Shown: positions 4,365 through 39,160 of the stretch, one piece after another
How positions within the stretch are numbered: position 1 is the stretch's first letter
Layout of the letters: the number at the start of each line of letters is the position of its first letter
Source of the DNA: an uncultured Candidatus Saccharibacteria bacterium
Lineage (GTDB): Bacteria; Patescibacteriota; Minisyncoccia; Phycocordibacterales; DATDWN01
Length of the DNA stretch: 64,000 bases
Direction of reading: 5' to 3'
Assembly (NCBI GenBank): GCA_964597675.1
Contig: CAZQYV010000004.1
Coordinates: 5,590-69,589, forward strand
Translations under genes and position numbers: made by a program
Notes under the pieces: generated by a model
Database searches by the model: none
Seen by the model: only the letters and a program-made list of their open reading frames with translations
What the model was told of the DNA's origin: nothing

Positions 4365-7109
4365 ATGAAAAGAATTCTAATTATATGTTCATTTCTTTTT
4401 GCAATATCAATACCTGTAGCATATGCCGGGCAGATATTGTTTCAAATAAATTCTGCACCTGCTTATGGGTACACCGCATCATGTAATGCGCCGTATGACG
4501 ATGCTACAACTCAATGTATGCAACGAGGTGGAACTATTGGTGGAGGCTCTCCTATTGTTTATTATACACTTATGGGTCAGGCATGTGGTAATGGTAATAC
4601 CTCACTTGCCAACACTCATTCATGCAGTACTGCATATAGAAATAGCCAAGGTATGTGTGGGCAAGACTGCCTTGGAACACTAACCTATAATGGTGAATTG
4701 CTCAGCGCGTCTTCTTGTTCATTATCTGGCACCCCACCAACAGCATCATATAGTTGTCAGTTCTTCGGCGCTTGCCAGGTAGTTGTATATCCAGGAAATG
4801 ATTTTTGGGCATTTGTACCAAGTAGTGCGTGCACGACTGGAGGCGGTGGCAGTACTGGCTTCGCGTTAGGAGTTACACCATTACTCCGTACAATTAATCA
4901 GGGAGATACGACAACATATTCAGTGAATATATACAACCAATATTCAGGTACATTAAACCTATCAGTCACTGGATGTCCTCCTGGTGCATCATGTACGTTT
5001 TCAAGTTCTGCCCCAGTATTTACATCTGTTCCAACTGATGACAACATGACATTAACTTTGACAGTTTCAAACACATCCTCAATTCCATCAAATTTATATA
5101 CACTTAATGTTTCTGGGGTTACCAACAGTGTGACTGCAAATGCGGCCCCTGTACAGTTGCAGGTTAATTCTCTTCCTCCAAGTAATCCAGTCAACCCAAC
5201 AGGGACATCAAGTTCAGCTGCTGGTAATGCTGCTAGTTGTGCAAGTGTCAACTTGTCATGGGGAGCATCGACGGGTGGTTCCGGTGCTATCACATATACT
5301 ATTTTCAGAAATACAGTGAATTCAGCATTGAGTGCAACTCAAATTACAAATGGTTTGTCGGCAACCACATATACAAACTCATCGATCGCCGCCTCGACAT
5401 CATATTATTATTGGGTACAAGCAGTGTCTGGTGGTCAGACTAGTAGCATGGTTCCTTTTGGAGTTATCACAACCCCAGCATGTAGTGTCGCAGGTACCGC
5501 GCCTACCGTTTCTTTGAGTAGTAATCCAAGCGGTGGTACAGCACCAATGACGAGTACGATCACATGGACAACAAGCAATAGCCCGACATCATGTACCGCA
5601 AGTGGCGCTTGGTCTGGGTCAAAGACAACAAGTGGTGGTAGTCAGTCGGTTACAGGTATTCCTGCAGGTAGTAATACGTTCACGTTGTCGTGTACAAATG
5701 CATATGGTACAGGCTCTGCAAGTACAAATGTCACTGCTATTGCTGCTGATGCAGGTGCGCCCACAGTTACGGTCACTGCAAATCCAACATCTGGAGCAGT
5801 TGGTATGTCTACCATGGTTACATGGACAACAACAAACAGCCCAACAACGTGTACTGCATTTGATGACTGGTCAGGTGCAAAAGCGGTGGGCGGTGGAAGT
5901 CAGGTTATAACCAATCTTTCCAGTGGCGTTAAGAGATTTTCTATTCAATGTACAAATGCAAATGGTGGTTCCGTGGGAAGTGCGACTGTGACTGTTGGTA
6001 GTTCACCTACAACACCCACCGCTACGATTTCAGTTTCTCCATCTACTATTACGACTGGCAGTAACACAACGGTTATTTGGTCATCAACAAACTCAACTTC
6101 GTGTACTGCTTCTGGTGGTTGGTCAGGAACAAAAGCTGTCTCTGGTTCAGAAATTATGTATGGCCTTACGACAGATACAACCTATACAATAAACTGTACA
6201 AATGGAGTAACAAACAGTGGACCAATTTCTACGACTGTAACTGTTGTTCCTGTACAGGGTCAGTGTGGAGCCTATCCATATTATGGTTTTATATATGGAC
6301 CAACGGGAAATATACCAATTAACAGTAATTTCCAGGTGACCTGTGACTCAGGTATTGGTAATTATTTACCAAATAATCCTCCTCCAATTGTTGATAATCC
6401 ATATGTAGATGGTCATTGTACATTTTCAAACTGGAATGGTACTGGTGCTGTTTACAATTGTACTGCCCCAAGTAATCCTACTCGACAATGGATGACCTGT
6501 GGATGGAATAATTTACCAAGTCTCCCACAATGTACGACCGGAATGTTTTTGTACTACGGTAATACTGCGGACCCAATTGTTCCAACTCTTATAATAACTC
6601 CATCTTCTGGATCTGGTCCGTTTACATTTAGTTGGACTGTCTCTGGTGGTGCAACAGAATGTTCCGCATATGGTGATGGTTCTACATCATGGTCTGGATA
6701 CAAGAATCCTTTGAGTGGTAGTGAATCTGGTAAAACAATAACTGCAGGAACACACACATTTAGATTAGATTGTTTTGATACTAATCCATCGTATCAACGC
6801 TCTGGAAGTGGTAGCGCTACTGTCACTGTGTCTGGTGCATCAACTTCATATACACTCAATGTTTCCAAGACAATCGGTGGGTCAGTTAAGAGTGCTGATT
6901 CATTTATCAACTGTGGTGCTGCCTGTGCAAAGAGTTACAACCAGGGAACCGCAGTAACACTCAACGCGTATCCAGATTCAACCCAGTGGAAATTTGCTGG
7001 ATGGACAGGGGATTGTTCTGGAACAGGCACCTGTAACTTGATTATGAATGCAGCAAAATCTGTTAAAGCACTCTTTATTCTTCGGCCTCTGCTATATCAA
7101 GAATTTTAA
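4365..7109 (+). CDS. Large secreted Cys/Ser/Thr-rich surface protein with an FN3-like domain, three tandem ~84-aa Ig-like repeats and a C-terminal InlB B-repeat-like domain
   Basis: 914-aa ORF with a signal peptide (ILIICSFLFAISIPVAYAG). The FN3-like block is ITYTIFRNT...YYYWVQAVSGG. Three tandem repeats carry conserved TWTT(S/T)NSPT(S/T)CTA...SG(S/A)K...C(T/N)N. The C-terminal YTLNVSKTIGGSVKSADSFINCGAACAKSYNQGTAVTLNAYPDSTQWKFAGWTGDCSGTGTCNLIMNAAKSVKALF matches the InlB B-repeat pattern. Confidence 0.7.
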   Translation: MKRILIICSFLFAISIPVAYAGQILFQINSAPAYGYTASCNAPYDDATTQCMQRGGTIGGGSPIVYYTLMGQACGNGNTSLANTHSCSTAYRNSQGMCGQDCLGTLTYNGELLSASSCSLSGTPPTASYSCQFFGACQVVVYPGNDFWAFVPSSACTTGGGGSTGFALGVTPLLRTINQGDTTTYSVNIYNQYSGTLNLSVTGCPPGASCTFSSSAPVFTSVPTDDNMTLTLTVSNTSSIPSNLYTLNVSGVTNSVTANAAPVQLQVNSLPPSNPVNPTGTSSSAAGNAASCASVNLSWGASTGGSGAITYTIFRNTVNSALSATQITNGLSATTYTNSSIAASTSYYYWVQAVSGGQTSSMVPFGVITTPACSVAGTAPTVSLSSNPSGGTAPMTSTITWTTSNSPTSCTASGAWSGSKTTSGGSQSVTGIPAGSNTFTLSCTNAYGTGSASTNVTAIAADAGAPTVTVTANPTSGAVGMSTMVTWTTTNSPTTCTAFDDWSGAKAVGGGSQVITNLSSGVKRFSIQCTNANGGSVGSATVTVGSSPTTPTATISVSPSTITTGSNTTVIWSSTNSTSCTASGGWSGTKAVSGSEIMYGLTTDTTYTINCTNGVTNSGPISTTVTVVPVQGQCGAYPYYGFIYGPTGNIPINSNFQVTCDSGIGNYLPNNPPPIVDNPYVDGHCTFSNWNGTGAVYNCTAPSNPTRQWMTCGWNNLPSLPQCTTGMFLYYGNTADPIVPTLIITPSSGSGPFTFSWTVSGGATECSAYGDGSTSWSGYKNPLSGSESGKTITAGTHTFRLDCFDTNPSYQRSGSGSATVTVSGASTSYTLNVSKTIGGSVKSADSFINCGAACAKSYNQGTAVTLNAYPDSTQWKFAGWTGDCSGTGTCNLIMNAAKSVKALFILRPLLYQEF
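5499..6255 (+). repeat. Three in-frame tandem coding repeats (~258, 255 and 243 nt) inside the surface-protein gene
   Basis: The repeat units begin APTVSLSSNPSGG, APTVTVTANPTSG and TPTATISVSPSTI. Each contains TW(T/S)(T/S)TNS(P)T(S/T)CTA ... WSG(S/A/T)K ... (F/Y)(T/S)(L/I)(S/Q/N)CTN. Confidence 0.7.
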
Positions 7110-7164
7110 AGGAGATACGAAAAAAGCGGGCCCGATTGGGGTCCGCTTTTCATATTGAAAGGAC

Positions 7165-9237
7165 TCACTCCACAGTCTTTGGAGACGGTGGGGGATTTGT
7201 ATTGAACCAAAATACTCTCTCTGGCGGAGCAAACTTGATGTTGCTCCCATACCAGATTGTCTCCGGCATTACGAACTTGATTCGTTCAAGTCCTGGACGC
7301 TCGTCAGAGATGATCTCGTACTTCACCTCACGGTCGTCGATCGTGAGGACAAACTTTTCGGTCCCTCGACCGGTTACCCAACCTACGAGAGTATCGCCAG
7401 CATTCACTGGGTTGTCGCCCGTTACGAGCCCTTTCTCGTTAGCAACGAGAAAGTAGGTAGCATCATCTGGCAGACGTAGGAAAGTTGGTGCTGACGCGAC
7501 GATCTCTGTAGAGAAAGGCTTCGATCGGTTGATTAAAGCACCTTCAGTAGAGACCTTTTCAACGATCAGGTTGTGCTTTCCGAGCGAGATGTCGCTCGGC
7601 ATAACAAACGTAATTGTCGAACCACTCTCATTCGTCTTCACAGACTGCAGTGTGGAGGCGATACCTCCGACACGCACAATGCATCCAGTAATGCAAAGAT
7701 CTTGACCCTTGAGGATCATTATCTTGTTCGGTGCAGGGGACTCGACCTCACCGTACATAGAGACGATTTCTGAGATCGTTCCGACACGATAGAGTGGATC
7801 AGCGGAGACGACCAGAGTCATTTTTTCAGACTCAATCGTTTCTGAGATGTTTTTCAATCTCACGACAATAGTGTACTCACCCGGCTCGATTGGAGCCATG
7901 AAAGTGACCATACCGTTTTCGACAGTCGTTGGCACCTCAATGCCATCGACAAGGATTGTTGTCGTCGCTTTTTCAGCAACGAGCCCGACACCCATGACAA
8001 CCACAAGTGCCTCTGGGGCAACAGTGCCAAGGGTCTCAACCTTCGGCACCAAGAGTGGCGGAAGTGGTGGCAGAGAAATCTTGACCACCTTATCCTTGGT
8101 GCTGTCTTTTGGATCAGCAACAAGGATGTAAGTGGACCCTATGGCATCAATGGATGCCCAAAAGGGGTTCACCGCGGACTTCACAATTCCCGGTATCGTG
8201 GTTGGTCCGTAGACCGTCCAAGACTCCTTGGTCTCGATATCGAGAAGAACGAAGGAATCAGATTTCCCAGGAATCTCGATGCCGAGATACTCGTTCACAG
8301 CCAATAAGGTGTACGAGCCCCTTAGGGCGATAGGTCGCAGGTTCCAGCGCGTTGCGCTGTAAACTTCCTTCGGGCTGCCATCGGTAAGCACCACAACGTG
8401 GTACTTACCATCCTTATCCTTGTAACTAGCAATTCCTTGCCAGTTATCGGGGTCAAAGGCTAGATCACAACATACTGCAGTTGTGACCTTTGCGGGGCGC
8501 GACGAAGATAGTAAGACTGTTGAATCGCCGTTAGACGAAATTCGCACAATCTCTGTTTCAGTTGTCTGTGGGTTACGCGGAGACCTTTCCGCAAGAAATG
8601 TCCCAGATTTTTCCCGCCAGACCTGGATGAGTTGGAATTCTGGATCAGTGAGGATGAGTTCCTCGTTCAGTGCGCAAGCGAGCGATGCGGGATTCTCCTT
8701 GAATGAGTAAATCCCAACATCGCCTATCATGGCCAGTCCAGTGTAGTACACCTTCCCATCGAGGGAAGGAAACTCGCCATGAAATTCATCCAAAGCGAGA
8801 TTATTCATTGTTCCGATGCACGGATTGAACGTGCGTTCTGGCGACATCCGTGTTGCCGTATGGTTGGAGGCAGCGTATGCGGGCACCTTTTTATACGGGA
8901 ACCCAACGGATGAATACACCATGGTTCCCAAAGTAGGTAATGTCGTCTGGAGGATGGTTCCATCCTCTGCCGTCTTTTCAATCGGCGGCGGGACTATTAG
9001 AGGGAATCCATTCTGTACTTGTGGCACAGACCACACTTTTTTTTGTGGGTCATATCTCATACCCATAAAGTTGGGATACGTTGCCATGATTGCAATTTCT
9101 CCATTGGAGGTCGCAACCAGAAACTGAATGTAATTACTTGAGTGGCTCGGCAGGGCAGGCAACGTCTCGACGACGAGGCCTTGACCGCTACACACAACCA
9201 CCCACAAAACAATTGAGAGAATGATTTTCCAGGTCAT
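7165..9237 (-). CDS. Secreted protein with an N-terminal beta-rich region and three C-terminal IPT/TIG-like Ig domains
   Basis: 690-aa ORF with a signal peptide (MTWKIILSIVLWVVVCSGQG). C-terminal Ig-like blocks include TTILVDGIEVP...GEYTIVVRL, IMILKGQDLCITGC...HNLIVEKVS and DTLVGWVTGRGTEKFVLTIDDREV. G+C is visibly higher than in flanking housekeeping genes. Confidence 0.6.
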   Translation of the reverse strand: MTWKIILSIVLWVVVCSGQGLVVETLPALPSHSSNYIQFLVATSNGEIAIMATYPNFMGMRYDPQKKVWSVPQVQNGFPLIVPPPIEKTAEDGTILQTTLPTLGTMVYSSVGFPYKKVPAYAASNHTATRMSPERTFNPCIGTMNNLALDEFHGEFPSLDGKVYYTGLAMIGDVGIYSFKENPASLACALNEELILTDPEFQLIQVWREKSGTFLAERSPRNPQTTETEIVRISSNGDSTVLLSSSRPAKVTTAVCCDLAFDPDNWQGIASYKDKDGKYHVVVLTDGSPKEVYSATRWNLRPIALRGSYTLLAVNEYLGIEIPGKSDSFVLLDIETKESWTVYGPTTIPGIVKSAVNPFWASIDAIGSTYILVADPKDSTKDKVVKISLPPLPPLLVPKVETLGTVAPEALVVVMGVGLVAEKATTTILVDGIEVPTTVENGMVTFMAPIEPGEYTIVVRLKNISETIESEKMTLVVSADPLYRVGTISEIVSMYGEVESPAPNKIMILKGQDLCITGCIVRVGGIASTLQSVKTNESGSTITFVMPSDISLGKHNLIVEKVSTEGALINRSKPFSTEIVASAPTFLRLPDDATYFLVANEKGLVTGDNPVNAGDTLVGWVTGRGTEKFVLTIDDREVKYEIISDERPGLERIKFVMPETIWYGSNIKFAPPERVFWFNTNPPPSPKTVE

Positions 9238-9579
9238 TCGTTCGTTTCCCCTTTATAAAGACGTATTGTTCAATACAAATATGTAAAAGAACTTATGCCC
9301 CGAATTATACATCATATTTATAAATTTGTACAGCATATTATCCACACCCCTATGCTATAGTCATATTTCGTTATATATTGAATATATGTCACTATCCATC
9401 GGTATGGTGTGAACGCAGCACGACATTACCTCGGCGAGATAGGTTCCAAGTCTATTCCATTTATGTTTACTATCAAGCTACCTCCAGCACAAAAGTTATT
9501 TGGGAATAAGTAAGGGGTGGGAGGGGGAGGAAAAACGACCCCCCGTGCCTTTATACGAGGTAACAATGTATGGACCTTC

Positions 9580-9609
9580 AAAAAAAAGCCCGATCTCTAC
9601 GACCGGGCT
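9580..9609 (-). terminator. Intrinsic terminator (minus strand) after the DUF5680-like gene
   Basis: The minus-strand reading is AGCCCGGTCGTAGAGATCGGGCT followed by TTTTTTTT: a 6-bp GC stem, 11-nt loop and 8-T run, immediately 3' of the stop at 9639. Confidence 0.7.
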
Positions 9610-9638
9610 ACCTATATTTTGTCAGCTCTAGATTTTGT

Positions 9639-10112
9639 TTACGAAAGTTCGTCAATGAGACCGCCGTGGAATCTGGCATAATAAACTATCTCATTTTTGT
9701 AATAGATGAATTCCTCGCCCGAAAACTGGGAGAGATCGCCATCCATATGGCTTTCGTAAGTGAACACTTCCGTAGTCCAGTAATTCGGACCGCGAAACGG
9801 AGTACCGTCTTCGACACCAACCCGGAGAGCTTTCTTGAGAAAGCTGTACACTGACTTATGGTCCATGCCTTCTTTGGTAACACCTCCGTAGTAATTCATA
9901 CCCCAAACAGTCTGGTTAACAATCCTAACAATTTCTTCGCCGATAAATCGACGACCGCCGTAGTAGGAGTCAAGATACAACCACCCGGATTTGTAATGTT
10001 GAAAATCGATTGAACCCGGTCTGCTCGGCATAACCGGTCTGCTTGAATTGGAGGCATAGGTATTGGCATGTGCTTCCACCAAAAAACGTTTGAGTGTTTC
10101 CAGATCTATCAT
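9639..10112 (-). CDS. DUF5680-like protein
   Basis: MIDLETLKRFLVEAHANTYAS...YLDSYYGGRRFIGEEIV...WGMNYYGG resembles the DUF5680 family, recalled from memory. The start was set at the internal Met; the 39 codons upstream are AT-rich and contain the complement of the neighbouring gene's SD. Higher G+C. Confidence 0.5.
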   Translation of the reverse strand: MIDLETLKRFLVEAHANTYASNSSRPVMPSRPGSIDFQHYKSGWLYLDSYYGGRRFIGEEIVRIVNQTVWGMNYYGGVTKEGMDHKSVYSFLKKALRVGVEDGTPFRGPNYWTTEVFTYESHMDGDLSQFSGEEFIYYKNEIVYYARFHGGLIDELS

Positions 10113-10162
10113 TTTGACCGCCTTTCTGAGGTTTATATAACCATATTTTTGTATGTATTGCA

Positions 10163-10204
10163 ATAGTTCGTAAAATATGGTTATATAGTGGCGGAGGTAA
10201 CTGT
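10163..10204 (+). promoter_or_regulatory. Conserved promoter(-10)/SD motif, copy 1: cGTAAAATATGgTTaTAtagTGgCGGAGGTAA
   Basis: About 24 of 31 nt are identical to 12765-12795. It contains a TAAAAT -10-like hexamer and a GGAGG SD 8 nt before the ATG of gene 10205. It sits in a divergent intergenic region. Confidence 0.4.
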
Positions 10205-10426
10205 ATGCCAGCAGGTTGTAAGAAAGCATATATCGCTAAAGGAACAGTGCGGATTGGATTTGGAGGTGATCACGAAGATGTGGACAAGGAGTATGTCTTT
10301 CTCGCTTGGGGAGATGATCATGCTCCCACTGTAGCAAGAGAACTTGCTCACAACGAGGAACTCAACCTCCAGAAAGTTTTCCGAGTTTCAGATGTCAACG
10401 GCTACGTAGAGATTCCACTAAGCTAA
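10205..10426 (+). CDS. Hypothetical small protein (73 aa)
   Basis: Strong SD (GGAGG 8 nt upstream of the ATG). G+C-elevated island. No family recognised. Confidence 0.4.
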   Translation: MPAGCKKAYIAKGTVRIGFGGDHEDVDKEYVFLAWGDDHAPTVARELAHNEELNLQKVFRVSDVNGYVEIPLS

Positions 10427-10441
10427 TAAGGAGAAGAAAGT

Positions 10442-10825
10442 ATGTTTCCACGAGGAAGAATGGTTCCGATCGAAAGTCGGAGAGAGAAGCACATTTTTCG
10501 GGGACTGGTTACAGAACACCTGAACCATACGACTGGTCGTTGGTTCTGGAAGAAGTACTTTCCCTCAATCAAAGTTCAATTTTTTGAGGCAGAACATCGC
10601 CGTCTCATGCAGGTCTGCGAAAACACAACCTATTCGGCTCCGAATCCTTCCAATTTCGTGGAGATCGGATTCAAGAAAGCCGAAGAACGAGCCGAGTATC
10701 CGGTCGGGACAGTGGTTGAGGTTACACTCAGCACCTCGAATCAGATTGATGAATTTTTCACTGGAGCGGATCTGTTCCGGTGGGACGGAGTGAAGAAAGC
10801 ATACTACACATCCCATGCTCTTTAA
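10442..10825 (+). CDS. Hypothetical protein (127 aa)
   Basis: AAGGAG SD. Co-directional and tightly spaced with 10205 and 10932. Confidence 0.4.
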   Translation: MFPRGRMVPIESRREKHIFRGLVTEHLNHTTGRWFWKKYFPSIKVQFFEAEHRRLMQVCENTTYSAPNPSNFVEIGFKKAEERAEYPVGTVVEVTLSTSNQIDEFFTGADLFRWDGVKKAYYTSHAL

Positions 10826-10931
10826 TTTCAGAAAGCCTGATCAGCAACACTCGATCGGGCCCTTCTCTGGGTTCGCACTGAAGTTTAGTGTTGATCCAGT
10901 AAAAGGTAGTTCTTTTGAAAAGGAGAATATC

Positions 10932-11171
10932 ATGAGTCATCGTTTTCTTTCGCCACTGGAAGTTGCACGAATGATGGAGTTAGCGGACAAACCGTATCGT
11001 CCGCCTCAAATCATTGAACTCAAAGAAAAAATCGAGAACGAAACAAAGGCGGCAGAGCTCAGAGCTTCTATCACCGGTGTCATCGACGAAGAAAGTGTTC
11101 AAAGAATTGTTGCCATGAGACTTGAACTCGATGTTCTCTACGGCAAGTGGACCATTGGAGAACTGAAATAA
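10932..11171 (+). CDS. Hypothetical protein (79 aa)
   Basis: An internal Met (MSHRFLSPLEV...) preceded by AAAAGGAGAATATC was chosen as the start; the upstream in-frame extension overlaps the previous gene. Confidence 0.35.
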   Translation: MSHRFLSPLEVARMMELADKPYRPPQIIELKEKIENETKAAELRASITGVIDEESVQRIVAMRLELDVLYGKWTIGELK

Positions 11172-11502
11172 TAAAATTATTCAGATTTTAGCGACCGACT
11201 GAGAAATCATAGGCCGCTTTCTTTTCTGTCAAAAATGGAATAAATTGGTCATACATAACCGTTGGAAGGGTAGATAGATTAATTTTACTTTCTCTCACTT
11301 TTCATATATCTTTAAAACATGTCACAGCTTTCTATAGGCACGGGAAGGACGCAACCTCACTTTTTGGTTACTCAAGCAATTCAAAGCAAATTCCGTTTTA
11401 TTTTGAGATAAAACTACCTCCGCCTTTGCGTAGGGGAATCGACTACGGCTTCACCAAGGAGAACTATTGGACCGTTACAACCGACAATTCGAGTAAGGTA
11501 TA

Positions 11503-11529
11503 GAAAAAGCCCGATCTCTGCGACCGGGC
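11503..11529 (-). terminator. Intrinsic terminator (minus strand), near-identical copy of the 9580-9609 terminator
   Basis: The minus-strand reading is AGCCCGGTCGCAGAGATCGGGCT followed by TTTTTC. It is 25/26 nt identical to the terminator at 9580-9609 and sits immediately 3' of the stop at 11555. Confidence 0.65.
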
Positions 11530-11554
11530 TTGCCTGAATACAGGCTTTTGTACA

Positions 11555-12676
11555 TCAAACTTCGGCAGGTGTTTTGGTTCTTGGTCGACCCCTCCCATAA
11601 TGTGTCTTTTTCTGAGGAAGCAGAGCTTTGAACTTCTTGTGCACTTCACTTTCCGGCTCTGTGCATTTAACAATCCACTCGCAGTTAACTTGAACATACC
11701 CAGGATTTTTGATTTCCTCGGTATGGTCAACAACAAACTGGAATGTCTTGTTGGCGACTTCCTGATCTCCGTATTTGCTGGCTAAATCAGAGATATGATG
11801 AAGTTCATACATGCCGTGTTGCGGATTACAACTGCCAGCACGAAGTTCTCGGAGGATCTCACTGGCAATGACACCCCGATGAAGACATGGCCAGTCGAAA
11901 TCCCGATAGAGTCTGTTCAACTCACCCCACGTGTTCTTGCCTGTGAGGGCGTCTCGCAATTCGATTTCCAGAAACTTTGCGTAGTATGCGTGGTCTTCTG
12001 GAAATCTCTTTCCGAGATTTTTGATCTCCTCGTCAGACGGATTGTCGGAGAGGATTTTTTCGGCGACTTCTACGTACTGTCTGGCGGTCAAAGCACCTTT
12101 TGTTTCGGAGCGTTGTCTGCCGACTGGACTGTAGTAGAACGGTCCATCGAAAAGCGAGAGAAAACCGTAGTCCTGCCGAGTACTTGCAAAAGGGTAGGCT
12201 CTTTGAACAAGATCTCTCCTGTTTATGCGGCACTCATCCCTTTGTTTACTACCAGCACCGTTACGCCAGTTCTCATCGAATCGCAAATCGAAGAACTCGA
12301 TGATCGAGCGCCAGTCGGCGAAATTTGTCGCCGTCAGCTTCATTCGGTCAAAGCTCATCGTTCGCCAGTCGTACCAGTATTTTGCCTGGATGTACCACCG
12401 TCTCGCAGTGAGAAAGTCTGCTTGAGCGAGAATGGCAAGAACTCTTTCTTTGGCCTTATCGACAGTGACATCGGAAGGTTTTACACTTCCAATTCTGTCA
12501 ATAATTTTCTCACCCATGTTGTCCTGATTGAAAAACGCACCTTCGCTCGTAATACGAAGGAAAGTAAAGCATTGTTCCATCGTAGCAGTGTGCCAAAAGT
12601 TTTCCGGCAGTTCATTCTCATAGAGGAGAACTGCCAGAGTGAAGCCGATACGTTCGACGGCGATGGTGAAATCCAT
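11555..12676 (-). CDS. Hypothetical protein (373 aa) with an Arg/Lys-rich C-terminal tail (GRGRPRTKTP)
   Basis: Coding-like composition (W/Y/D/E-rich). The start was set at MDFTIAVERIG, preceded by GAGGAGAT; the tool's upstream extension is low-complexity. It is followed by a terminator. No family recognised. The opposite-strand ORF 11795-12691 is judged spurious. Confidence 0.5.
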   Translation of the reverse strand: MDFTIAVERIGFTLAVLLYENELPENFWHTATMEQCFTFLRITSEGAFFNQDNMGEKIIDRIGSVKPSDVTVDKAKERVLAILAQADFLTARRWYIQAKYWYDWRTMSFDRMKLTATNFADWRSIIEFFDLRFDENWRNGAGSKQRDECRINRRDLVQRAYPFASTRQDYGFLSLFDGPFYYSPVGRQRSETKGALTARQYVEVAEKILSDNPSDEEIKNLGKRFPEDHAYYAKFLEIELRDALTGKNTWGELNRLYRDFDWPCLHRGVIASEILRELRAGSCNPQHGMYELHHISDLASKYGDQEVANKTFQFVVDHTEEIKNPGYVQVNCEWIVKCTEPESEVHKKFKALLPQKKTHYGRGRPRTKTPAEV

Positions 12677-12764
12677 AGAAATCTCCTCTGAAGTTGATGA
12701 TTGCAAGGTGCTTAAATCCGAGGAGAGGATAACATAATTAGGAAGATTAGTCAATTTGCCAAGT

Positions 12765-12801
12765 TATGTAAAATATGATTGAATGTTGACGGAGGTAAAT
12801 C
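12765..12801 (+). promoter_or_regulatory. Conserved promoter(-10)/SD motif, copy 2: tGTAAAATATGaTTgAAtgtTGaCGGAGGTAA
   Basis: Paralogous to the motif at 10163-10204 and in the same position relative to a divergent gene pair. Confidence 0.4.
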
Positions 12802-13272
12802 ATGGAACTGATTGAACTGCTCGTTGAATTCTACAAAGAAGACCGTGCTACCGATCAAGCCCGTAGTTTAACAAGTCAGATTAGGGAGTATGGCTCAGCG
12901 ATTGTGGATGAGTACACCCGCTTCTTTAACAACTATAAGCCAAAGTATCAGGAGGCTGAGTGGCATTTCTGGTGGATATTTGCCGCCATTCCACTCAAGG
13001 ACCAACTGTACATGGTGGAAAAAGCCATGAATTCTGCTGGAGTAGATCGGACACGTCTGGAAAGGAGAATTGTGAACGAAAAACAACTTCTCGAACTTTT
13101 CCAGATTCCGGAGGATTCTCCACACAAGACTCTGATGAAGATGCTTGCATTCGGATGGTATCGCTATATTTCCGTCTGCTCTCCTTCAGAGGATGGATCG
13201 GCATCTCATCTTCGTGATCTGATTCCGTTTCTCAAGACTCTTTTGCTCAACCAACAAGGAGATGCGAAATGA
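12802..13272 (+). CDS. Hypothetical protein (156 aa)
   Basis: GGAGG SD. G+C-elevated island. Confidence 0.45.
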   Translation: MELIELLVEFYKEDRATDQARSLTSQIREYGSAIVDEYTRFFNNYKPKYQEAEWHFWWIFAAIPLKDQLYMVEKAMNSAGVDRTRLERRIVNEKQLLELFQIPEDSPHKTLMKMLAFGWYRYISVCSPSEDGSASHLRDLIPFLKTLLLNQQGDAK

Positions 13273-13574
13273 AAATTTTCACGCTTGCCTTTACGCTGAT
13301 CAGCGTCATTTTCGGCGGTCTTCTCTGGCTCATGAAGCCGGACAGGGTTGTCGAGATCGCAGATTCCGAAGGAACTGTCACAGTGTCGGTTTACGGACAA
13401 ACAATCCACGTCGATCCGGGACCAGCGGGCTACAAGCATGTCTTCTACGACAGAAACAGCAGCAAGCTGAAGACGACTCTTGTCACCGGTATCCCTCGTC
13501 GAGGACTAATGCTTACCTTCACGAAGGAATCAAATGCTCGTGAGACAAGGATCTGGCATGCTGTATTCAAGTAG
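13269..13574 (+). CDS. Hypothetical protein with an N-terminal TM helix (101 aa)
   Basis: ATGA start/stop overlap with the previous gene implies translational coupling. AAGGAG SD. N-terminal FTLAFTLISVIFGGLLWLM. Confidence 0.45.
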   Translation: MKIFTLAFTLISVIFGGLLWLMKPDRVVEIADSEGTVTVSVYGQTIHVDPGPAGYKHVFYDRNSSKLKTTLVTGIPRRGLMLTFTKESNARETRIWHAVFK

Positions 13575-13580
13575 ATACAA

Positions 13581-13626
13581 ACCGCCCCGAGAGCCGCTCG
13601 CTCTCCGGGCGGCTTTCATTTTTTTA
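13581..13626 (+). terminator. Intrinsic terminator ending the island's plus-strand operon
   Basis: CCGCCCCGAGAG-CCGCTCG-CTCTCCGGGCGG followed by CTTTCATTTTTTT. Confidence 0.6.
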
Positions 13627-13648
13627 GAAATTAAATTAAACTGATGGT

Positions 13649-14176
13649 ATGGGATTAATGGCTCCAAAAATCGAAAGCGCAGAGGCATTAAAAACTCTGG
13701 CAAAAGAAACCAGCAAACCTTGGTATAAAAAAGCAGAGGTATGGATTGGCGTTATTGCAAATGCAATTGCAATTTTTGGTTTGTTTTTCTCTGTTGTTCA
13801 GATCAAAGATATCAAAAATAATCAAAGTGATAGGCAGACTGATTTAATGTTCAGATATGATGATAAACTAAACTTTGGAACCAATGCAAAATTATTCAGT
13901 GCCATCGATAGAAATAAACCAATTTTATATAAAAACGGCGGTAAGTTTAGTGAAGATGATCTCGACTACTTTTTGGGGTTGCTAAACCAAATGTATGAAT
14001 CAAACCAAAACAAACTTTTGAGCGATGATATGATCCAGAGTAATTTCAGTTATCTATTAGAAAAAACTTATAAAAATAAAGAGGTTCAGGATTATTTGAA
14101 GGAAATCAGGAAAGAAGACGAAAGTTTTTTCGTTGGTTTTGATGAACTGGCAGAATCTCAAATATCGAGTAATTAG
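13649..14176 (+). CDS. Hypothetical membrane protein (175 aa) in an AT-rich patch
   Basis: One TM segment (VWIGVIANAIAIFGLFFSVV) and a K/N/D-rich soluble part. Composition differs from both flanks. Confidence 0.4.
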   Translation: MGLMAPKIESAEALKTLAKETSKPWYKKAEVWIGVIANAIAIFGLFFSVVQIKDIKNNQSDRQTDLMFRYDDKLNFGTNAKLFSAIDRNKPILYKNGGKFSEDDLDYFLGLLNQMYESNQNKLLSDDMIQSNFSYLLEKTYKNKEVQDYLKEIRKEDESFFVGFDELAESQISSN

Positions 14177-14183
14177 AAATTAT

Positions 14184-14549
14184 TTATAATTCACACGAAG
14201 GACTTTTGATACGATCATACTTAGCAAGGAGAGCTTCAAGGGTGTCAAAGGATTTCAAATAGCTTGAGCTGAGGGTTTTCCAACCATCACAGGACTCGGG
14301 ATAGTAATACTTTGCACTATAATGCGATGAAGTATAAAATTTTCCACTTGATTGGGTTGTTGCGGTCGGAGTAGTTTGAGTTTGCGAAGCGGAGTTTGTA
14401 GTGTCGCCGTTGCAGGTAGTCGGGGACCAAAGACCCAATTGGTTTGTCTGAGCGGATTTTTGTGCGGCCTTAAATTCTGCTTGGTATTTATAAGGAGTGT
14501 TGTAAGTATATTCGTGAGCATAACCTTGTTGGTTGAGCAAAAGAGGCAA
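14184..14549 (-). pseudogene. Thermonuclease (SNase)-like gene remnant: only the last ~40 aa of the nuclease fold plus a C-terminal Cys-flanked domain
   Basis: QGYAHEYTYNTPYKYQAEFKAAQKSAQTNQLGLWS aligns with the C-terminal end of staphylococcal-nuclease-like proteins (...[30 protein letters not shown]). An in-frame TAA lies immediately upstream of the TTG start, so the catalytic N-terminal part is absent. The C-terminal YYYPESCDGWKTLSSSYLKSFDTLEALLAKYDRIKSPSC resembles the small Cys-flanked DNA-binding-like modules often appended to nucleases. Confidence 0.4.
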
Positions 14550-15788: not shown

Positions 15789-15862
15789 CCACTTGACAAT
15801 ATTATAAATCTCGTATATAATACCATAGAAACAGTTCTACAATCAATCCAAGAAGGAGAAAT

Positions 15863-16321
15863 ATGTTCGAGAAAATCGACCGTAAGTCACCCGAAATCAT
15901 GACCGCATTGGCCGAGGCACCCATCTTCAAGAAGCAGGGTAACGTGCAAGCACGGCCCGCTGTCGAAGGAGAACAGATTGTCACCAAGCTCGCCAGTGGC
16001 GCGGAGGAGACGACCAACACCGCAAAGGCGAACGACTGGGTAATGACGAATCCGTCTGGTGAACAGTACATCATCGGGAAGGAGAAGTTCTTCGGTCGGT
16101 ACGAGCCATCCGATACGGATGGCACTTACCATGCCAAGGGCTACTGCCGCGCGATCCAGAACCCGTTCGGGAAACCGATCGAGATAATGGCTTCGTGGGG
16201 CTCACCCCAAACCGGTGATGAAAATTGCTTGATCGCAGATACCTGCGATGAGAGCGGCGAGAACATGGGCGGCGAGCCCTATCTCATAGACGGCAAGGCA
16301 TTCGCCGAGACCTACGCCTAG
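15863..16321 (+). CDS. Hypothetical protein (152 aa), G+C-rich orphan
   Basis: AAGGAG SD. Noticeably G+C-rich, Gly/Glu/Asp/Cys-containing protein. Followed by a T-rich terminator-like stretch. Confidence 0.45.
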   Translation: MFEKIDRKSPEIMTALAEAPIFKKQGNVQARPAVEGEQIVTKLASGAEETTNTAKANDWVMTNPSGEQYIIGKEKFFGRYEPSDTDGTYHAKGYCRAIQNPFGKPIEIMASWGSPQTGDENCLIADTCDESGENMGGEPYLIDGKAFAETYA

Positions 16322-16663: not shown

Positions 16664-17113
16664 ATGATAGATACAAAGCAAAGAATAAGAGAGATTCTCG
16701 AAAAGGGATACTTGTTAAGTCTCGCAACAGCCGATCAAAATGGTCCATGGGTTTCTGATGTGAGATATGTATCTGATGATGACTTCACAATATACTGGAT
16801 GTCTGATCCAAACTGTAGACACTCAAAAACTATAGATCAAAACTCGTTAGTAGCAGCGACTATTGAATTAAATTATAATTTTGGAACGCCTAATCTTGGT
16901 TTACAAATTTCTGGCTACGCAAAAAAATTGAGTGTATTACGTGTTGATTTGGCTATTAAATACGTAACACGAAGAGGAAAGCCAACGCCATCACAAATAT
17001 CGAATATATTAAAAAATGGCTATTCATGGTATGAATTGAAGCCATCCTTTATTGAACTTAATGATGAGGAAAATTTTGGCTTTGATAATAAACAGAAGAT
17101 AGTAATCTCATAA
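16664..17113 (+). CDS. Pyridoxamine 5'-phosphate oxidase-like FMN-binding split-barrel protein
   Basis: KQRIREILEKGYLLSLATADQNGPWVSDVRYVSDDDFTIYWMSD is the typical PNPOx-family N-terminal pattern. Confidence 0.55.
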   Translation: MIDTKQRIREILEKGYLLSLATADQNGPWVSDVRYVSDDDFTIYWMSDPNCRHSKTIDQNSLVAATIELNYNFGTPNLGLQISGYAKKLSVLRVDLAIKYVTRRGKPTPSQISNILKNGYSWYELKPSFIELNDEENFGFDNKQKIVIS

Positions 17114-18214: not shown

Positions 18215-21118
18215 ATGAAGGAATATAACCATCTAAAAATAGAAAAAAAATGGCAATCGGTATGGGAGAAGAAAAAGATATTTCAGGCAAAGGATTCTGG
18301 CAAGAAAAAATTTTATGGTTTAATCGAGTTTCCATACCCCTCTGGTGATGGGCTCCATGTCGGACATGTACGAAGTAATACAGCGATGGATATTATTGCC
18401 CGTAAGCGCCGTATGGAGGGCTACAACGTGTTGTATCCCATCGGCTGGGATGCATTCGGCCTACCGACAGAAAACTATGCAATCAAGACAGGTATTGCTC
18501 CAGACAAGGTTACCAAGAAAAATACAGACACATTTAGACGGCAATTAAAGTCTTTGGGTTTTTCGTTTGATTGGTCTCGGGAAATAAACACAACTGATCC
18601 AAAATACTACAAATGGACACAGTGGTTGTTTTTGCAATTTTTGAAACATGATTTGGCATACAAGGCAAAAATAAATATCAATTGGTGTCCAAAAGATAAA
18701 ATCGGTTTGGCAAATGAAGAGGTGGTCAATGGGTGTTGCGAGAGATGTGGTACGCCAGTGGAAAAGAGAGAAAAGGAACAGTGGATGCTTCGTATTACAA
18801 AATACGCAGATCGACTTGATAAAGATCTCGACACAGTTGATTATCTTGAAAAGATCAAAGTGCAACAGAGAAATTGGATTGGGCGATCCGAGGGAGCAGA
18901 AATTGAATTCAAAATTAAAAAATCAAAAGTTAAAGATGGGGAATCCGATGAGATGATTGGAAAGGTTACAGTATTTACAACCCGCCCAGATACAATATAT
19001 GGAGCGACATATTTGGTTTTGGCACCAGAAGTTGCAGAGGGATTTATGATTCAGGATTCAGGATTTAGGAGTGGGGTCAGGAATGCAGATGAGTTGAAAA
19101 AATATATTCGTGATGCACGAGCAAAAAGTGATATAGAACGTGGAGATGGTAGTAAAGAAAAAACTGGTGTGGAAATAAAAGGGATTACTGCTATCAATCC
19201 AGTAAATAATGAAGAGATTCCTGTCTTTATTGCTGACTACGTCCTTGCGACATATGGTACGGGTGCAGTTATGGCTGTCCCTGCCCACGACGAACGTGAT
19301 TTTGCTTTTGCTAAGAAATATAATCTGCCAATACGACAGGTTATTGCACAATATATAGTTGATAAGAAATTTCCTCCAGTTAAAGAACAAAAAAATGTTG
19401 CCCGAAGTACAGTTCATGCAATTGTAAGAAATCCAAAAACAAATATGTATTTATGTTTGGAATGGAAGCATTTTCCATGGACCACATTTATTGTTGGTGG
19501 TGTAGAGGATGGTGAAAGTGCTATTGAGGCAGCACAGCGAGAGGTGTATGAAGAGACTGGTTATAAAAATATAAAAGTAACATACGACTTTTCAGATATT
19601 GTCTGTACGACATATAATGCCGCACATAAGAAAGAGAATCGTATTGCATACACCACATGTGTGTTTTTTGATCTAGTAAATGAGGAAAAAGATGAAATTG
19701 ATGTTGCTGAGAGTGATAAGCATGCACCCATCTGGCTTGAGCGTAAGGACATTACTGAAGCACGAATGACATGTGCTGAATTGCCGGTCTGGTTACATTA
19801 TATTGATACTAAAAACACACCTGTATACACAGGTTCTGGTGTCTTAATAAATTCGGGGGAACTTACTGGTGTATCGTCTGAAAAAGCCACCAATGAAATT
19901 ATAAAGCATGTTGGTGGCAAAGTCGTCACTAAATTCAAACTTCGAGATTGGGTATTTTCACGCCAGCGATACTGGGGTGATCCAATACCTGTGGTGCATT
20001 GTGAAAAATGTGGAATCGTACCACTACCTGAAAAGGATCTACCACTGAAACTTCCAAAAGTAAAAAAATATCAACCAACTGATACGGGTGAGTCGCCACT
20101 TGCTGGTATCGTATCGTGGGTTAATACAAAATGTCCAAAATGCAAAGGTAAGGCAAAACGTGAGACAGATACTATGCCCCAATGGGCTGGGTCATCATGG
20201 TATTTTCTTCGATATGCTGATCCAAAAAACAGCAAGAAATTTGCCGACCCAAAGAAATTAAAGTATTTCACTCCTGTAGACTGGTACAATGGTGGTATGG
20301 AGCACACTACTCTCCACTTACTTTACTCACGTTTCTGGCATAAGTTTTTGTATGATTTAGAACTGGTGCCAACTTCTGAGCCGTATCTAAAACGGACATC
20401 ACATGGGATGATATTGGCTGGCGGGGGGGAAAAGATGTCAAAATCAAAAGGTAATGTAATCAACCCAGACACAATTGTTAAAACATATGGTGCAGATACC
20501 CTACGAATGTACGAAATGTTCATGGGGCCATTTGATCAACCGATTCCATGGGCCGAGGAAAATATTATCGGGGTTCGTCGTTTTATCGAGCGTCTTTTCC
20601 GCTTGGAAAGAAAACTAGGTACATCAAAAAAAATTTTTGACACTGCATCATATAAAAAATTAGAAAACACACTTCACAAAACAATTGAAAAAGTTGGAAC
20701 AGATATAGAAAGTATGTCATTTAATACTGCTATTTCATCCATGATGATTTTGGTTAATGAAATGGAGAAAGCAGAGATGATAAGAACAAAAGATTTTGAA
20801 TTGCTTATTCGTATTATTTCTCCGTTTGCACCACACGTTGCAGAGGAAATGTGGTCACTACTTGGGCATAAAACACTTCTCGCCCTAGAAAAATGGCCAG
20901 AGGCAGATAGGGCAAAAATGGTTGATTCGGAGATGACAATCGCTATTCAAATCAATGGCAAAATTCGGGCAGAATTGACTGTTTCGGCTGATGCTACGGA
21001 AGCAGAGATTGTGGATAAGTCAAAAGAGATCCCGGAGGTTTCCAAGTGGTTTGTGGGCAAAGAGGTCAAGAAGGTCATTTATGTGCCTAAAAGACTGGTA
21101 AATTTCGTTATTTTGTAA
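18215..21118 (+). CDS. leuS: Leucyl-tRNA synthetase with an inserted NUDIX hydrolase domain (aa ~378-540)
   Basis: Class I aaRS motifs are present (HVGH, KMSKSKGN). The CP1/editing region is present. A ~160-aa insert between ...YNLPIRQVI and SGVLINSGEL carries a perfect Nudix box, GGVEDGESAIEAAQREVYEETGY. The C-terminal anticodon-binding region is intact. Confidence 0.9.
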   Translation: MKEYNHLKIEKKWQSVWEKKKIFQAKDSGKKKFYGLIEFPYPSGDGLHVGHVRSNTAMDIIARKRRMEGYNVLYPIGWDAFGLPTENYAIKTGIAPDKVTKKNTDTFRRQLKSLGFSFDWSREINTTDPKYYKWTQWLFLQFLKHDLAYKAKININWCPKDKIGLANEEVVNGCCERCGTPVEKREKEQWMLRITKYADRLDKDLDTVDYLEKIKVQQRNWIGRSEGAEIEFKIKKSKVKDGESDEMIGKVTVFTTRPDTIYGATYLVLAPEVAEGFMIQDSGFRSGVRNADELKKYIRDARAKSDIERGDGSKEKTGVEIKGITAINPVNNEEIPVFIADYVLATYGTGAVMAVPAHDERDFAFAKKYNLPIRQVIAQYIVDKKFPPVKEQKNVARSTVHAIVRNPKTNMYLCLEWKHFPWTTFIVGGVEDGESAIEAAQREVYEETGYKNIKVTYDFSDIVCTTYNAAHKKENRIAYTTCVFFDLVNEEKDEIDVAESDKHAPIWLERKDITEARMTCAELPVWLHYIDTKNTPVYTGSGVLINSGELTGVSSEKATNEIIKHVGGKVVTKFKLRDWVFSRQRYWGDPIPVVHCEKCGIVPLPEKDLPLKLPKVKKYQPTDTGESPLAGIVSWVNTKCPKCKGKAKRETDTMPQWAGSSWYFLRYADPKNSKKFADPKKLKYFTPVDWYNGGMEHTTLHLLYSRFWHKFLYDLELVPTSEPYLKRTSHGMILAGGGEKMSKSKGNVINPDTIVKTYGADTLRMYEMFMGPFDQPIPWAEENIIGVRRFIERLFRLERKLGTSKKIFDTASYKKLENTLHKTIEKVGTDIESMSFNTAISSMMILVNEMEKAEMIRTKDFELLIRIISPFAPHVAEEMWSLLGHKTLLALEKWPEADRAKMVDSEMTIAIQINGKIRAELTVSADATEAEIVDKSKEIPEVSKWFVGKEVKKVIYVPKRLVNFVIL

Positions 21119-38688: not shown

Positions 38689-39069
38689 TTTTACTCTCCT
38701 ATCACTATTATAGCAAATAATAGTATGAATGTCAAGTGCACAAATGAGCACAGAAACTGTATAATTTCATACACAAAACATGAATATCACACCAGCACGA
38801 GGTAATTTCATAGAAAAAATCGTCCGTGACCAACAGGGGCGACTTGTTCGTGCAACTTTTTGTGTGTATGAGTGTGGTGGGCGTGTAAAAGCTCGTCTGG
38901 TACAGGCCACAGTAATTGACGATATATCTACGTCTGAGACACCTGTTCTGTCAGCGTATATTCCACAGATTATTTTTGAAACAGCACTTTTTGAATCTCG
39001 TCTTGTTTCACCATATTTTTCTTCCAATACATTATATTTTTCTGGTTCAAAACCACGAGCTCCCACATA

Positions 39070-39160
39070 TACGAAATAACGAATAAAAACACGAATAACT
39101 ACGAATAAGAAGTTTTATTATTCGTATTAATTCGTAACCAATTCGTTACTTCGTATTTTT
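39070..39160. promoter_or_regulatory. Dyad-symmetric array of ACGAATAA half-sites upstream of dnaK, including a perfect 9-N9-9 inverted repeat TACGAATAA-N9-TTATTCGTA (39100-39126)
   Basis: Three direct half-sites (aACGAATAA, cACGAATAA, tACGAATAA) are mirrored by three inverted ones (TTATTCGTa, aATTCGTAa, aATTCGTTa), centred ~80 nt upstream of the dnaK ATG. The geometry is identical to CIRCE (9-N9-9) but the sequence is different. Confidence 0.5.

Follow-up and report, generated by a model that had tools for sequence, protein, structure and literature searches.

How do bacteria of the Candidate Phyla Radiation (CPR, or Patescibacteria), with their tiny genomes, gain new genes and bring them to expression? 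The process is poorly known, and we know of almost no experimental data on CPR promoters and terminators. A locus that bears on both lies in a 64,000-nucleotide (nt) stretch of DNA (hereafter the window) from contig CAZQYV010000004.1, positions 5,590 to 69,589, of assembly GCA_964597675.1, listed as an uncultured Candidatus Saccharibacteria bacterium. Between the genes yceG and ychF, a block rich in guanine plus cytosine (G+C) holds a gene for a 690-amino-acid (aa) secreted protein and two units, unit 1 around a DUF5680 gene and unit 2 around a gene for a 373-aa protein, in which unrelated proteins stand under near-identical non-coding signals (Table 1). We put at about two in three the probability that this region is a horizontally acquired, mosaic accessory island of moron-like units on a common regulatory chassis, placed at a variable spot between yceG and ychF. 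The locus shows acquired genes arriving ready to run, with a portable predicted promoter, leader and terminator.

Compositionally, the island (7110–13630) has a G+C of 46.6% versus 39.0% for the rest of the window, with sliding values of 0.43–0.53 over ~7.0–13.7 kb, about 0.31–0.40 immediately downstream, and sharp steps at 7.1 kb and 13.6 kb. The excess sits at third codon positions (GC3) and not at second positions (GC2), with GC3 of 0.38–0.60 in island genes and 0.21–0.36 in flanking genes. Measured by tetranucleotide L1 distance, the island stands 0.338 away from the rest, whereas 29 control segments of the same size give 0.132 ± 0.017 (z = 12.4), and the 690-aa gene, unit 1 and unit 2 each lie above the largest 2-kb control. 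A first-pass annotation had described the island as G+C-richer than its flanks and had proposed a sliding G+C and tetranucleotide profile as the check; the description holds, and the profile is far from uniform.

Judged by sequence, the host is a Paceibacteria-like CPR bacterium, and the neighbouring YchF has its best relatives among metagenome-assembled genomes of Patescibacteria/Paceibacterota, at identities of at most 70%. These genomes share the backbone order yceG-ychF-DUF5671-leuS, with a yceG-ychF gap of 330–2575 nt in six of them versus 11 kb here. Not one island gene was found in ~45 Patescibacteria relatives (ychF 56–70% identical), and tblastn of all genes between yceG and ychF, together with the PGDYG and PNPOx-like genes beyond them, against the same set returned nothing but one weak SNase match, in L054 (labels L001–L099 and P0003 denote metagenome or assembly sequences compared with the window). 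The synteny comparison between yceG (there called mltG) and ychF that the first-pass annotation had suggested thus shows an insertion absent from relatives, and the region joins two marks of a genomic island: its composition is atypical and close relatives lack it. The closest relative by yceG, L030, carries other accessory genes in the gap, including a G+C-rich secreted protein of its own, so the gap is a variable hot spot.

What the two units share is non-coding. The island proteins are mutually non-paralogous (all-against-all BLASTP), as had been claimed, and among Pfam, PHROGs, PADLOC and NCBIfam their only family matches are DUF5680 and Soli_cterm, with PGDYG found in a separate downstream gene. 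By comparison, the hairpins at 9583–9609 and 11504–11530 are identical at 26 of 27 positions (25 of 26 in the earlier count), and their 23-nt core is found nowhere else in the 64 kb (0 occurrences expected by chance). Likewise, the promoter/Shine-Dalgarno (SD) motifs at 10170–10200 and 12768–12798 match at 25 of 31 positions (previously ~24 of 31). The motif core AAAATATGGTTATAT has three copies in the window, all in the island: one before p156 and two in a palindrome between DUF5680 and p73 (10134–10187, centred on a TTGCAA at 10158–10163 that is common to both strands), where the additional minus-strand copy, at 10135–10149, lies upstream of DUF5680. Both chassis motifs, defined by the patterns AAAGCCTGTATTCAGGCAAGCCCG...CGGGCTT for the hairpin and TAAAATATGRTTRWATGTTG.YGGAGGT for the outward promoter/SD, are absent from the window's other 57 kb.

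Functionally, these signals read as predicted terminators and promoters. A 9–10-bp G+C-rich stem and a T-run follow both the DUF5680 and the 373-aa gene. The stem after DUF5680 is perfect, with one G.U pair, on the minus strand only; after the 373-aa gene there are two hairpins, hairpin 2 (11508–11530) forming on that gene's strand a textbook intrinsic terminator (perfect stem with one G.U, then a T-run), and hairpin 1 (GCCTG-AATA-CAGGC, 11532–11545). On the opposite strand hairpin 1 and a TTTTG could serve a convergent transcript, and together the two hairpins most plausibly form a bidirectional terminator. Sigma-70-like −35/−10 elements with a TG extension are readable upstream of DUF5680, the 373-aa gene, p73 and p156, and they are conserved across loci by consensus reading.

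Evolutionarily, the non-coding frame is better kept than the protein it surrounds. Only five homologue clusters of the 373-aa protein turned up among 5.8 billion, with one more copy in a metagenome, and this rare family always travels with the chassis. In homologues that are 30–40% identical in protein, nucleotide identity to the window copy is 69–73% in the 5' region, 80–89% over nt 1–84 of the coding sequence (CDS), 58–63% in the CDS body and 80–87% in the 3' untranslated region (78–87% over the twin hairpin). The leader ...TTTAAG..GG.TTTAGCAC.TTGTAAT.ATCAACTTCAGAGGAGAT..ATGGATTTC is kept throughout, and a stem-loop inside the coding region, CTGGCAGTTC...GAACTGCCGG, is kept in all copies examined and invariant even at synonymous sites. 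The twin hairpin AAAGCCTGTATTCAGGC AAGCCCG...CGGGCTT directly follows the stop codon in all homologues examined (L003, L006, L093 and L099), with the core identical at 23 of 23 positions in L093, and the hairpin that closes the DUF5680 gene in the window recurs after DUF5680 homologues in L094 and L096 and after the L099 copy of the 373-aa gene. Over eight loci, pairing holds in 95.8% of stem cells, versus 14–50% for slid controls. The earlier claim of common regulatory signals is thereby broadened, with promoter/SD motif, leader and terminator accompanying distant homologues.

The outward-facing promoter/SD module recurs before unrelated genes. In unit 2 it reads TTGCCA-N17-...AAAATATGATTGAATGTTGACGGAGGT (plus strand) and is nearly identical in L006–L011. 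In the form TAAAATATGATTGAATGTTG.YGGAGGT it stands before p156 in the window, a 99/110-aa gene in L006 and a secreted protein of 87+ aa in L094, with a sister copy before p73, and none of these genes is homologous to another. In L006–L011 the module (TTGCAA...TAAAATATGATTGAATGTTGGTGGAGGT) is back-to-back with the 373-aa homologue and faces the 99/110-aa gene and then helix-turn-helix (HTH) genes, and in L094 and L095 (AAAATATGGTTATATGATGTCGGAGGT) it is back-to-back with an 83%-identical DUF5680 (77% nucleotide identity between the L094 gene and the window copy) and faces the unrelated secreted protein. Thus, the same chassis frames either DUF5680 or the 373-aa gene together with four different small genes. 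Its presence before unrelated cargo in several groundwater genomes offers concrete candidate promoter and terminator sequences for CPR bacteria.

Homologues of the 373-aa gene occupy at least four different genomic settings, and wherever the DNA was examined the gene has a local G+C of 0.47–0.50 in lower-G+C hosts. In L003 the homologue (83% identical) lies in a G+C-rich orphan cluster (0.44–0.52; host 0.36–0.37) and adjoins an IS30-like gene (HTH_38/rve_3). In L006–L011 it (38% identical) belongs to a block between a tRNA_bind gene and rpsT that also encodes a 538-aa large serine recombinase, a DnaG zinc-ribbon primase and XRE-type HTH proteins. In L099 it lies between dnaB and recR, and L093 has the same downstream flank; in the P0003 contig it lies between yceG and ychF, beside a Fic/RhuM gene. 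The first-pass proposal of horizontal acquisition is therefore borne out by the foreign composition, by the insertion missing from relatives and by a family found at unrelated loci near mobility genes.

Several details of this gene deserve a record of their own. Its first 28 codons (12590–12676, minus strand) are invariant among 35–40%-identical proteins (L003, L006, L093 and L099), including the synonymous sites of CTGGCAGTTCTCCTCT..GAACTGCCGG, which form a 9–11-bp stem, and there TCTCCTCT is complementary to the SD sequence AGAGGAGA. An 11–21-nt inverted repeat (..CATCAAACTTC / GAAGTTTGATG..) brackets the CDS. In L003 the IS30-like gene abuts the 373-aa leader, with inverted repeats at ~8181–8200 and ~9936–9955, and contigs from three sequencing runs (L003, at 11174–11196, L004 and L005) stop 22 nt past the terminator hairpin, which suggests a repeat or strain-variable junction just beyond it. 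As for the protein, the tail reads GRGRPRTK in the window and RGRPR is kept in 4 of 5 members, and the alignment shows the first 28 residues to be conserved as well; the sequence has the R-G-R-P core with basic flanks of an AT-hook, through which the protein may bind DNA. Its AlphaFold2 (AF2) model is an all-helical solenoid (mean predicted confidence, pLDDT, 78), with no meaningful fold match in PDB or BFVD.

The ~400-nt gaps at 9238–9638 and 11172–11554 hold a small conserved gene, here gene Y, that converges on each hairpin. In L094 the DUF5680 gene is joined to a 202-nt stretch with 90% identity to window positions 11331–11532, which adjoin the 373-aa gene in the window. Downstream of a T-run, the window and L094 differ by 13 synonymous changes and one stop-to-stop change versus 3 conservative ones in a single plus-strand frame (5/13 and 2/17 in the other two frames). 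The −1 frame is open over 11213–11503 with no ATG, GTG or TTG before 11426, and the ATG at 11319 opens the +1 frame, which runs into C_TTT_TTG. Homologues (L094, 889–1085, minus strand; L046, ~5620–5770; L055, ~8060–8230) share the ATG-frame consensus MS(Q)LSIGTxRTQ..F and, downstream in the −1 frame, ...K(Q/G)IPFxFxIxLPxP..., while the heptamer varies: T_TTT_TTG in L046 (with MSLSIGTTRTQHDF), ATTTTTC in L055 and C_TTT_TTG in the window and L094. Upstream of the run, comparison of these homologues shows multi-nucleotide replacements that are synonymous in frame 0 (TCT to AGT, AGG to CGA). The copy in unit 1's gap keeps MSLSIG and ...SIPFMFTIKLPP, with the T-run lost and the rest broken by a G-rich insert. 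This pattern is the signature of a conserved −1 frameshift, which would yield a ~60-aa protein. A structured RNA in 11325–11560 was considered and rejected, given fold z-scores of −1.4 and −2.0 and substitutions with 3-nt periodicity, which point to coding. As in dnaX-type −1 frameshifting, there are a U-rich slippery site (T_TTT_TTG in L046), an SD-like GGAAGGA ~11 nt upstream of it in the window, and a shift of purifying selection from frame 0 to −1 at the T-run in four genomes; unlike dnaX, gene Y would need the shift for its main product, and the window's C_TTT_TTG is imperfect. The gene indicates that seemingly intergenic CPR DNA can hide conserved coding sequence overlooked by standard gene callers.

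Taken together, we posit that each unit is autonomous, the large gene having its own sigma-70-type promoter and leader and a G+C-rich terminator hairpin, with the outward module back-to-back with the large gene's promoter and driving whichever small genes adjoin. The units would be chained, bidirectional promoters and terminators alternating, with the duplicated native gene Y in the gaps; the earlier description of two similarly organized cassettes therefore needs revision, in this alternation, in the duplicated gap gene and in a 690-aa gene that looks separate. The chassis would belong to a gene pool exchanged among Patescibacteria, at times on integrative elements and insertion sequences. 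Recombination inside the conserved non-coding parts may then swap the coding cargo, and we propose that this is why two units with unrelated proteins have near-identical signals. What the cargo does can probably be read only at the level of this architecture.

Five observations weigh against this account. First, the window has no recombinase or transposase domain in or adjoining the island (domain searches), no tRNA or tmRNA by scanning and no direct repeats flanking the island in the repeat analysis, so that an integrase, a tRNA target and flanking repeats, as further marks of a genomic island, are all missing and the means of arrival is not visible. Second, the P0003 homologue, 40% identical, has the same yceG-ychF position and the same divergent layout, which may reflect a unit 2 that has long resided there and descended vertically, and not repeated acquisition. 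Third, L046 and L055, two further Paceibacterota genomes, have gene Y too, between genes and upstream of ychF; it is probably native to the neighbourhood and not imported, and part of the island would therefore be host DNA between imports. Fourth, the promoters and terminators are consensus predictions. Fifth, a formal covariation count for the hairpin (MAFFT alignment) gives no double-sided changes, and one U-A to A-U swap in L003 is visible only on by-eye alignment; the case for compensatory changes was weakened further when the L006 difference proved to be the same stem read off the other strand, with no double-sided change.

The first-pass annotation had also suggested a phage-derived or defence/anti-defence origin, and its interpretation stands for acquisition and for modules with common signals but not for this part. 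A decayed prophage or defence island, in which lysogenic-conversion or immunity genes of a CPR phage were left after structural and integration genes were lost, would account for the moron-like anatomy, for the 373-aa relative in the element with a large serine recombinase, primase and XRE regulators, for Fic/RhuM beside the P0003 homologue, for a weak Abi_alpha match (E = 0.036) adjoining the DUF5680 relative in L096, and for a faint holin PHROG match (E = 0.008) of p175, a membrane protein just beyond the island. We nevertheless consider it unlikely. PADLOC-DB gave 0 matches for 10 island proteins, PHROGs no meaningful match for any island protein, INPHARED none by tblastn, and scans of IMG/VR with the 373-aa family, DUF5680, the hairpin and the promoter motif returned nothing, so the phage-database look-up that had been proposed for the cassette genes and terminator came back empty. 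Neither are there capsid, tail, terminase or integrase genes in the window, or virion genes in the L006 element, and DUF5680 also occurs in plain chromosomal operons, a 42%-identical relative overlapping a MarR gene in one of them; by this comparison, DUF5680 as such is not specific to mobile elements. The acquired island is real, and nothing shows a phage or defence system.

The conserved frame could instead be the working part of a system that moves DNA. In its bolder form, which we regard as distinctly unlikely, promoter, leader and hairpin would belong to an undescribed CPR gene-shuffling or mobility system whose 373-aa AT-hook solenoid reads palindromes, units entering host palindromes; if true, unrelated cargo genes would be exchanged at fixed non-coding joints. 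The plainer form, in which the non-coding frames are recombination or mobility sites of a cassette-exchange or transposon-like system whose AT-hook protein acts on DNA, seems to us quite improbable. The better conservation of non-coding than coding parts, the three contigs that break 22 nt after the hairpin and the inverted repeat around the 373-aa CDS would fit it, as would a further repeat, which also hints at the bolder form: a perfect 17-nt inverted repeat, AATACGAAATAACGAAT, flanks the 373-aa unit in L093 (134–150 and 1376–1392), an 88% copy (2787–2803 and 4792–4808) flanks the unit together with a 205-aa gene in L099, and the same pair stands uninterrupted, 56 nt apart, at 39068–39157 of the window, upstream of dnaK (39193–41118). 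This last, ACGAAT-rich palindrome, with arms AATACGAARTAACGAAT, gives with L093 and L099 the pattern of an empty versus a filled site, and may represent a host operator or palindrome that served as insertion target, or a remnant like a miniature inverted-repeat transposable element. The 17-nt repeat is, however, not present at the window island, in L003 or in L006; it looks like the trace of insertion into a host palindrome, and less probably like a transposon-like end. The 373-aa unit as an insertion sequence with 17-nt ends was accordingly set aside as unlikely, the repeats missing in 3 of 5 contexts and the fold not transposase-like. Against the plainer form, moreover, the hairpin with its T-run is a textbook terminator and strand-asymmetric (G.U versus A.C), the solenoid model is unlike any recombinase or transposase fold, and no target-site duplications were seen.

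That the segment is native and vertically inherited, its odd composition coming from amino-acid content or expression level, is very improbable and largely refuted. A neighbouring Thr/Ser/Gly-rich 914-aa surface protein (4365–7109) does reach a G+C of 0.43 purely through its second codon positions (GC2 0.61, GC3 0.27), and the P0003 homologue is syntenic beside ychF; in the island, by contrast, the rise is in GC3 and comes with a tetranucleotide z of 12, its genes are missing from all relatives fetched, and the 373-aa family sits at unrelated loci elsewhere. An assembly or binning chimera of two organisms, to which the metagenomic source and the sharp G+C steps might point, is hardly credible, because the junctions recur in independent assemblies (those from the island through p175, SNase and ychF to PGDYG in an NCBI assembly, L002, and the island's internal ones in a Logan assembly, L001) and the linkage of a p914-like gene with gene Y and DUF5680 is seen independently in L094.

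Table 1 Features of the island and its right edge (window coordinates; promoters and terminators are predictions).
Feature	Position	Strand	Remarks
690-aa secreted protein	7165..9237	-	N-terminal signal peptide; most G+C-rich island piece (G+C 0.500, GC3 0.544)
Gene Y-c1, degenerate	9388..9513	+	ATG MSLSIGMV*, then GTG 9409 MNAARHYLGEIGSKSIPFMFTIKLPPAQKLFGNK*
Hairpin after DUF5680	9587..9609	-	AGCCCGGUC-GUAGA-GAUCGGGCU then U8
DUF5680 protein, 157 aa	9639..10112	-	Pfam PF18931, E = 4e-32; start at ATG 10112, not farther upstream
Bidirectional promoter region, unit 1 (predicted from consensus)	10113..10204	both	54-nt palindrome; motif AAAATATGGTTATAT on both strands; SD GGCGGAGG
p73	10205..10426	+	small gene
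p127	10442..10825	+	small gene
p79	10932..11171	+	small gene
Gene Y-c2, intact	11319..11503	+	ATG frame MSQLSIGTGRTQPHF, C_TTT_TTG 11360-11366, -1 frame ...FGYSSNSKQIPFYFEIKLPPPLRRGIDYGFTKENYWTVTTDNSSKV*; stop 4 nt before hairpin
Twin-hairpin bidirectional terminator (predicted)	11505..11550		between gene Y (+) and 373-aa gene (-)
373-aa all-helical protein	11555..12676	-	C-terminal RGRPR AT-hook-like tail; invariant N-terminus MDFxxAVERIGFxLAVLLYENELPENxW
Bidirectional promoter region, unit 2 (predicted)	12677..12801	both	minus: 373-aa promoter and ~55-nt conserved leader
p156	12802..13272	+	translationally coupled to p101
p101	13269..13574	+	N-terminal transmembrane or signal segment
Segment within 28-nt inverted repeat	13238..14545		contains p101, terminator, low-G+C membrane protein p175, SNase fragment
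Unrelated intrinsic terminator closing the G+C-rich segment (sequence prediction)	13589..13617	+
PGDYG-family gene (PF14083)	15863..16321	+	separate G+C-rich insertion; G+C 0.564, GC3 0.725

Among the remaining genes, the 690-aa protein had been described as an IPT-domain secreted protein; the signal peptide stands, and the IPT domain was not reproduced by Pfam, which gave no match, the only family match being TIGR03437 Soli_cterm (residues 491–625, E = 3e-10). At the equivalent position in L094 the gene is missing and the p914-like gene directly abuts gene Y and DUF5680; this order suggests either that the 690-aa gene was inserted separately in the lineage of the window or that L094 has lost it. 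The DUF5680 assignment was right (111 bits versus a gathering cut-off of 25). For p73, p127, p79, p156 and p101, Pfam, PHROGs, PADLOC and NCBIfam gave no family matches, and p156 matches nothing but itself among 5.8 billion clusters. Representatives of p127 number 26 among 1.84 billion proteins; its AF2 model is confident (pLDDT 89), and a fold search with it returned OB-fold proteins (PriB, SSB, RPA) only at a non-significant E >= 0.06. A PDB sequence search with the DUF5680, 373-aa and 690-aa proteins gave no match, and Rfam gave nothing relevant for the whole window at gathering thresholds or for 9200–13700 at E <= 1.

At the right edge, an inverted repeat of exactly 28 nt (13238–13265 and 14518–14545, 26 of 28 identical, unique in the window, 0 expected) links the final codons of p156 (..LLLNQQGDAK) with the opening codons of an SNase gene fragment (MPLLLNQQGYAH..; 14184–14549, minus strand) that is 5'-truncated and covers only profile positions 68–106 of 107. 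The repeat points to a rearrangement there, and may be an inversion or recombination scar or bound an invertible segment. Beyond ychF, what had been called a second G+C-rich orphan is indeed G+C-rich but belongs to the PGDYG family; it has a perfect TTGACA-17-TATAAT promoter sequence (15793–15821) and is inserted, together with a PNPOx-like gene (16664–17113), between ychF and DUF5671, which adjoin each other in several relatives. On the other side, the 914-aa surface protein and the preceding 178-aa gene are absent from ychF-linked loci of relatives, and the variable region is therefore wider than its G+C-rich part; a 68%-identical C-terminal homologue of the 914-aa protein adjoins gene Y and DUF5680 in L094. 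The leucyl-tRNA synthetase (18215–21118) carries a NUDIX domain (residues 397–513) beside its editing domain.

How does this arrangement compare with known systems? In mycobacteriophages, start-associated sequences and stoperators are short motifs placed just upstream of start codons of unrelated genes within one mobile pool, and the motif here resembles them, although it has only three copies and lies in a cellular chromosome. Integron cassettes are likewise swappable single-gene units with a conserved imperfect palindrome at the 3' end, but the units here have their own promoters, run in both orientations and end in a 23-nt G+C-rich stem and T-run, not a 60–140-nt attC; nor did searches of the window find a recombinase, so that neither attC nor the IntI tyrosine recombinase that define integrons is seen. 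Phage morons such as those of HK97 and HK022 have their own promoter and factor-independent terminator and a G+C unlike that of their neighbours (PMC3594210). The units resemble them in their independence, deviant G+C, horizontal spread and cargo often of unknown function, and each has a predicted terminator of its own; they differ in that the window holds no phage genes and no surrounding prophage, that several units are chained by bidirectional promoters and terminators, and that the regulatory parts form a conserved family common to unrelated cargo, which is outside the definition of a moron. In Patescibacteria, genomic islands with mostly intra-phylum transfer have been documented (PMC12455944), and ours is similarly an atypical acquired block in an aquifer-type CPR genome, transferred probably within the phylum; it differs in having no integrase, tRNA target or flanking repeats, in its place at a yceG-ychF hot spot and in its content, almost entirely families of 1 to 26 known members. 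Beside both islands and morons, what is new and was unexpected is a portable regulatory chassis better conserved than the genes that it carries, with a hidden frameshifted small gene between its units.

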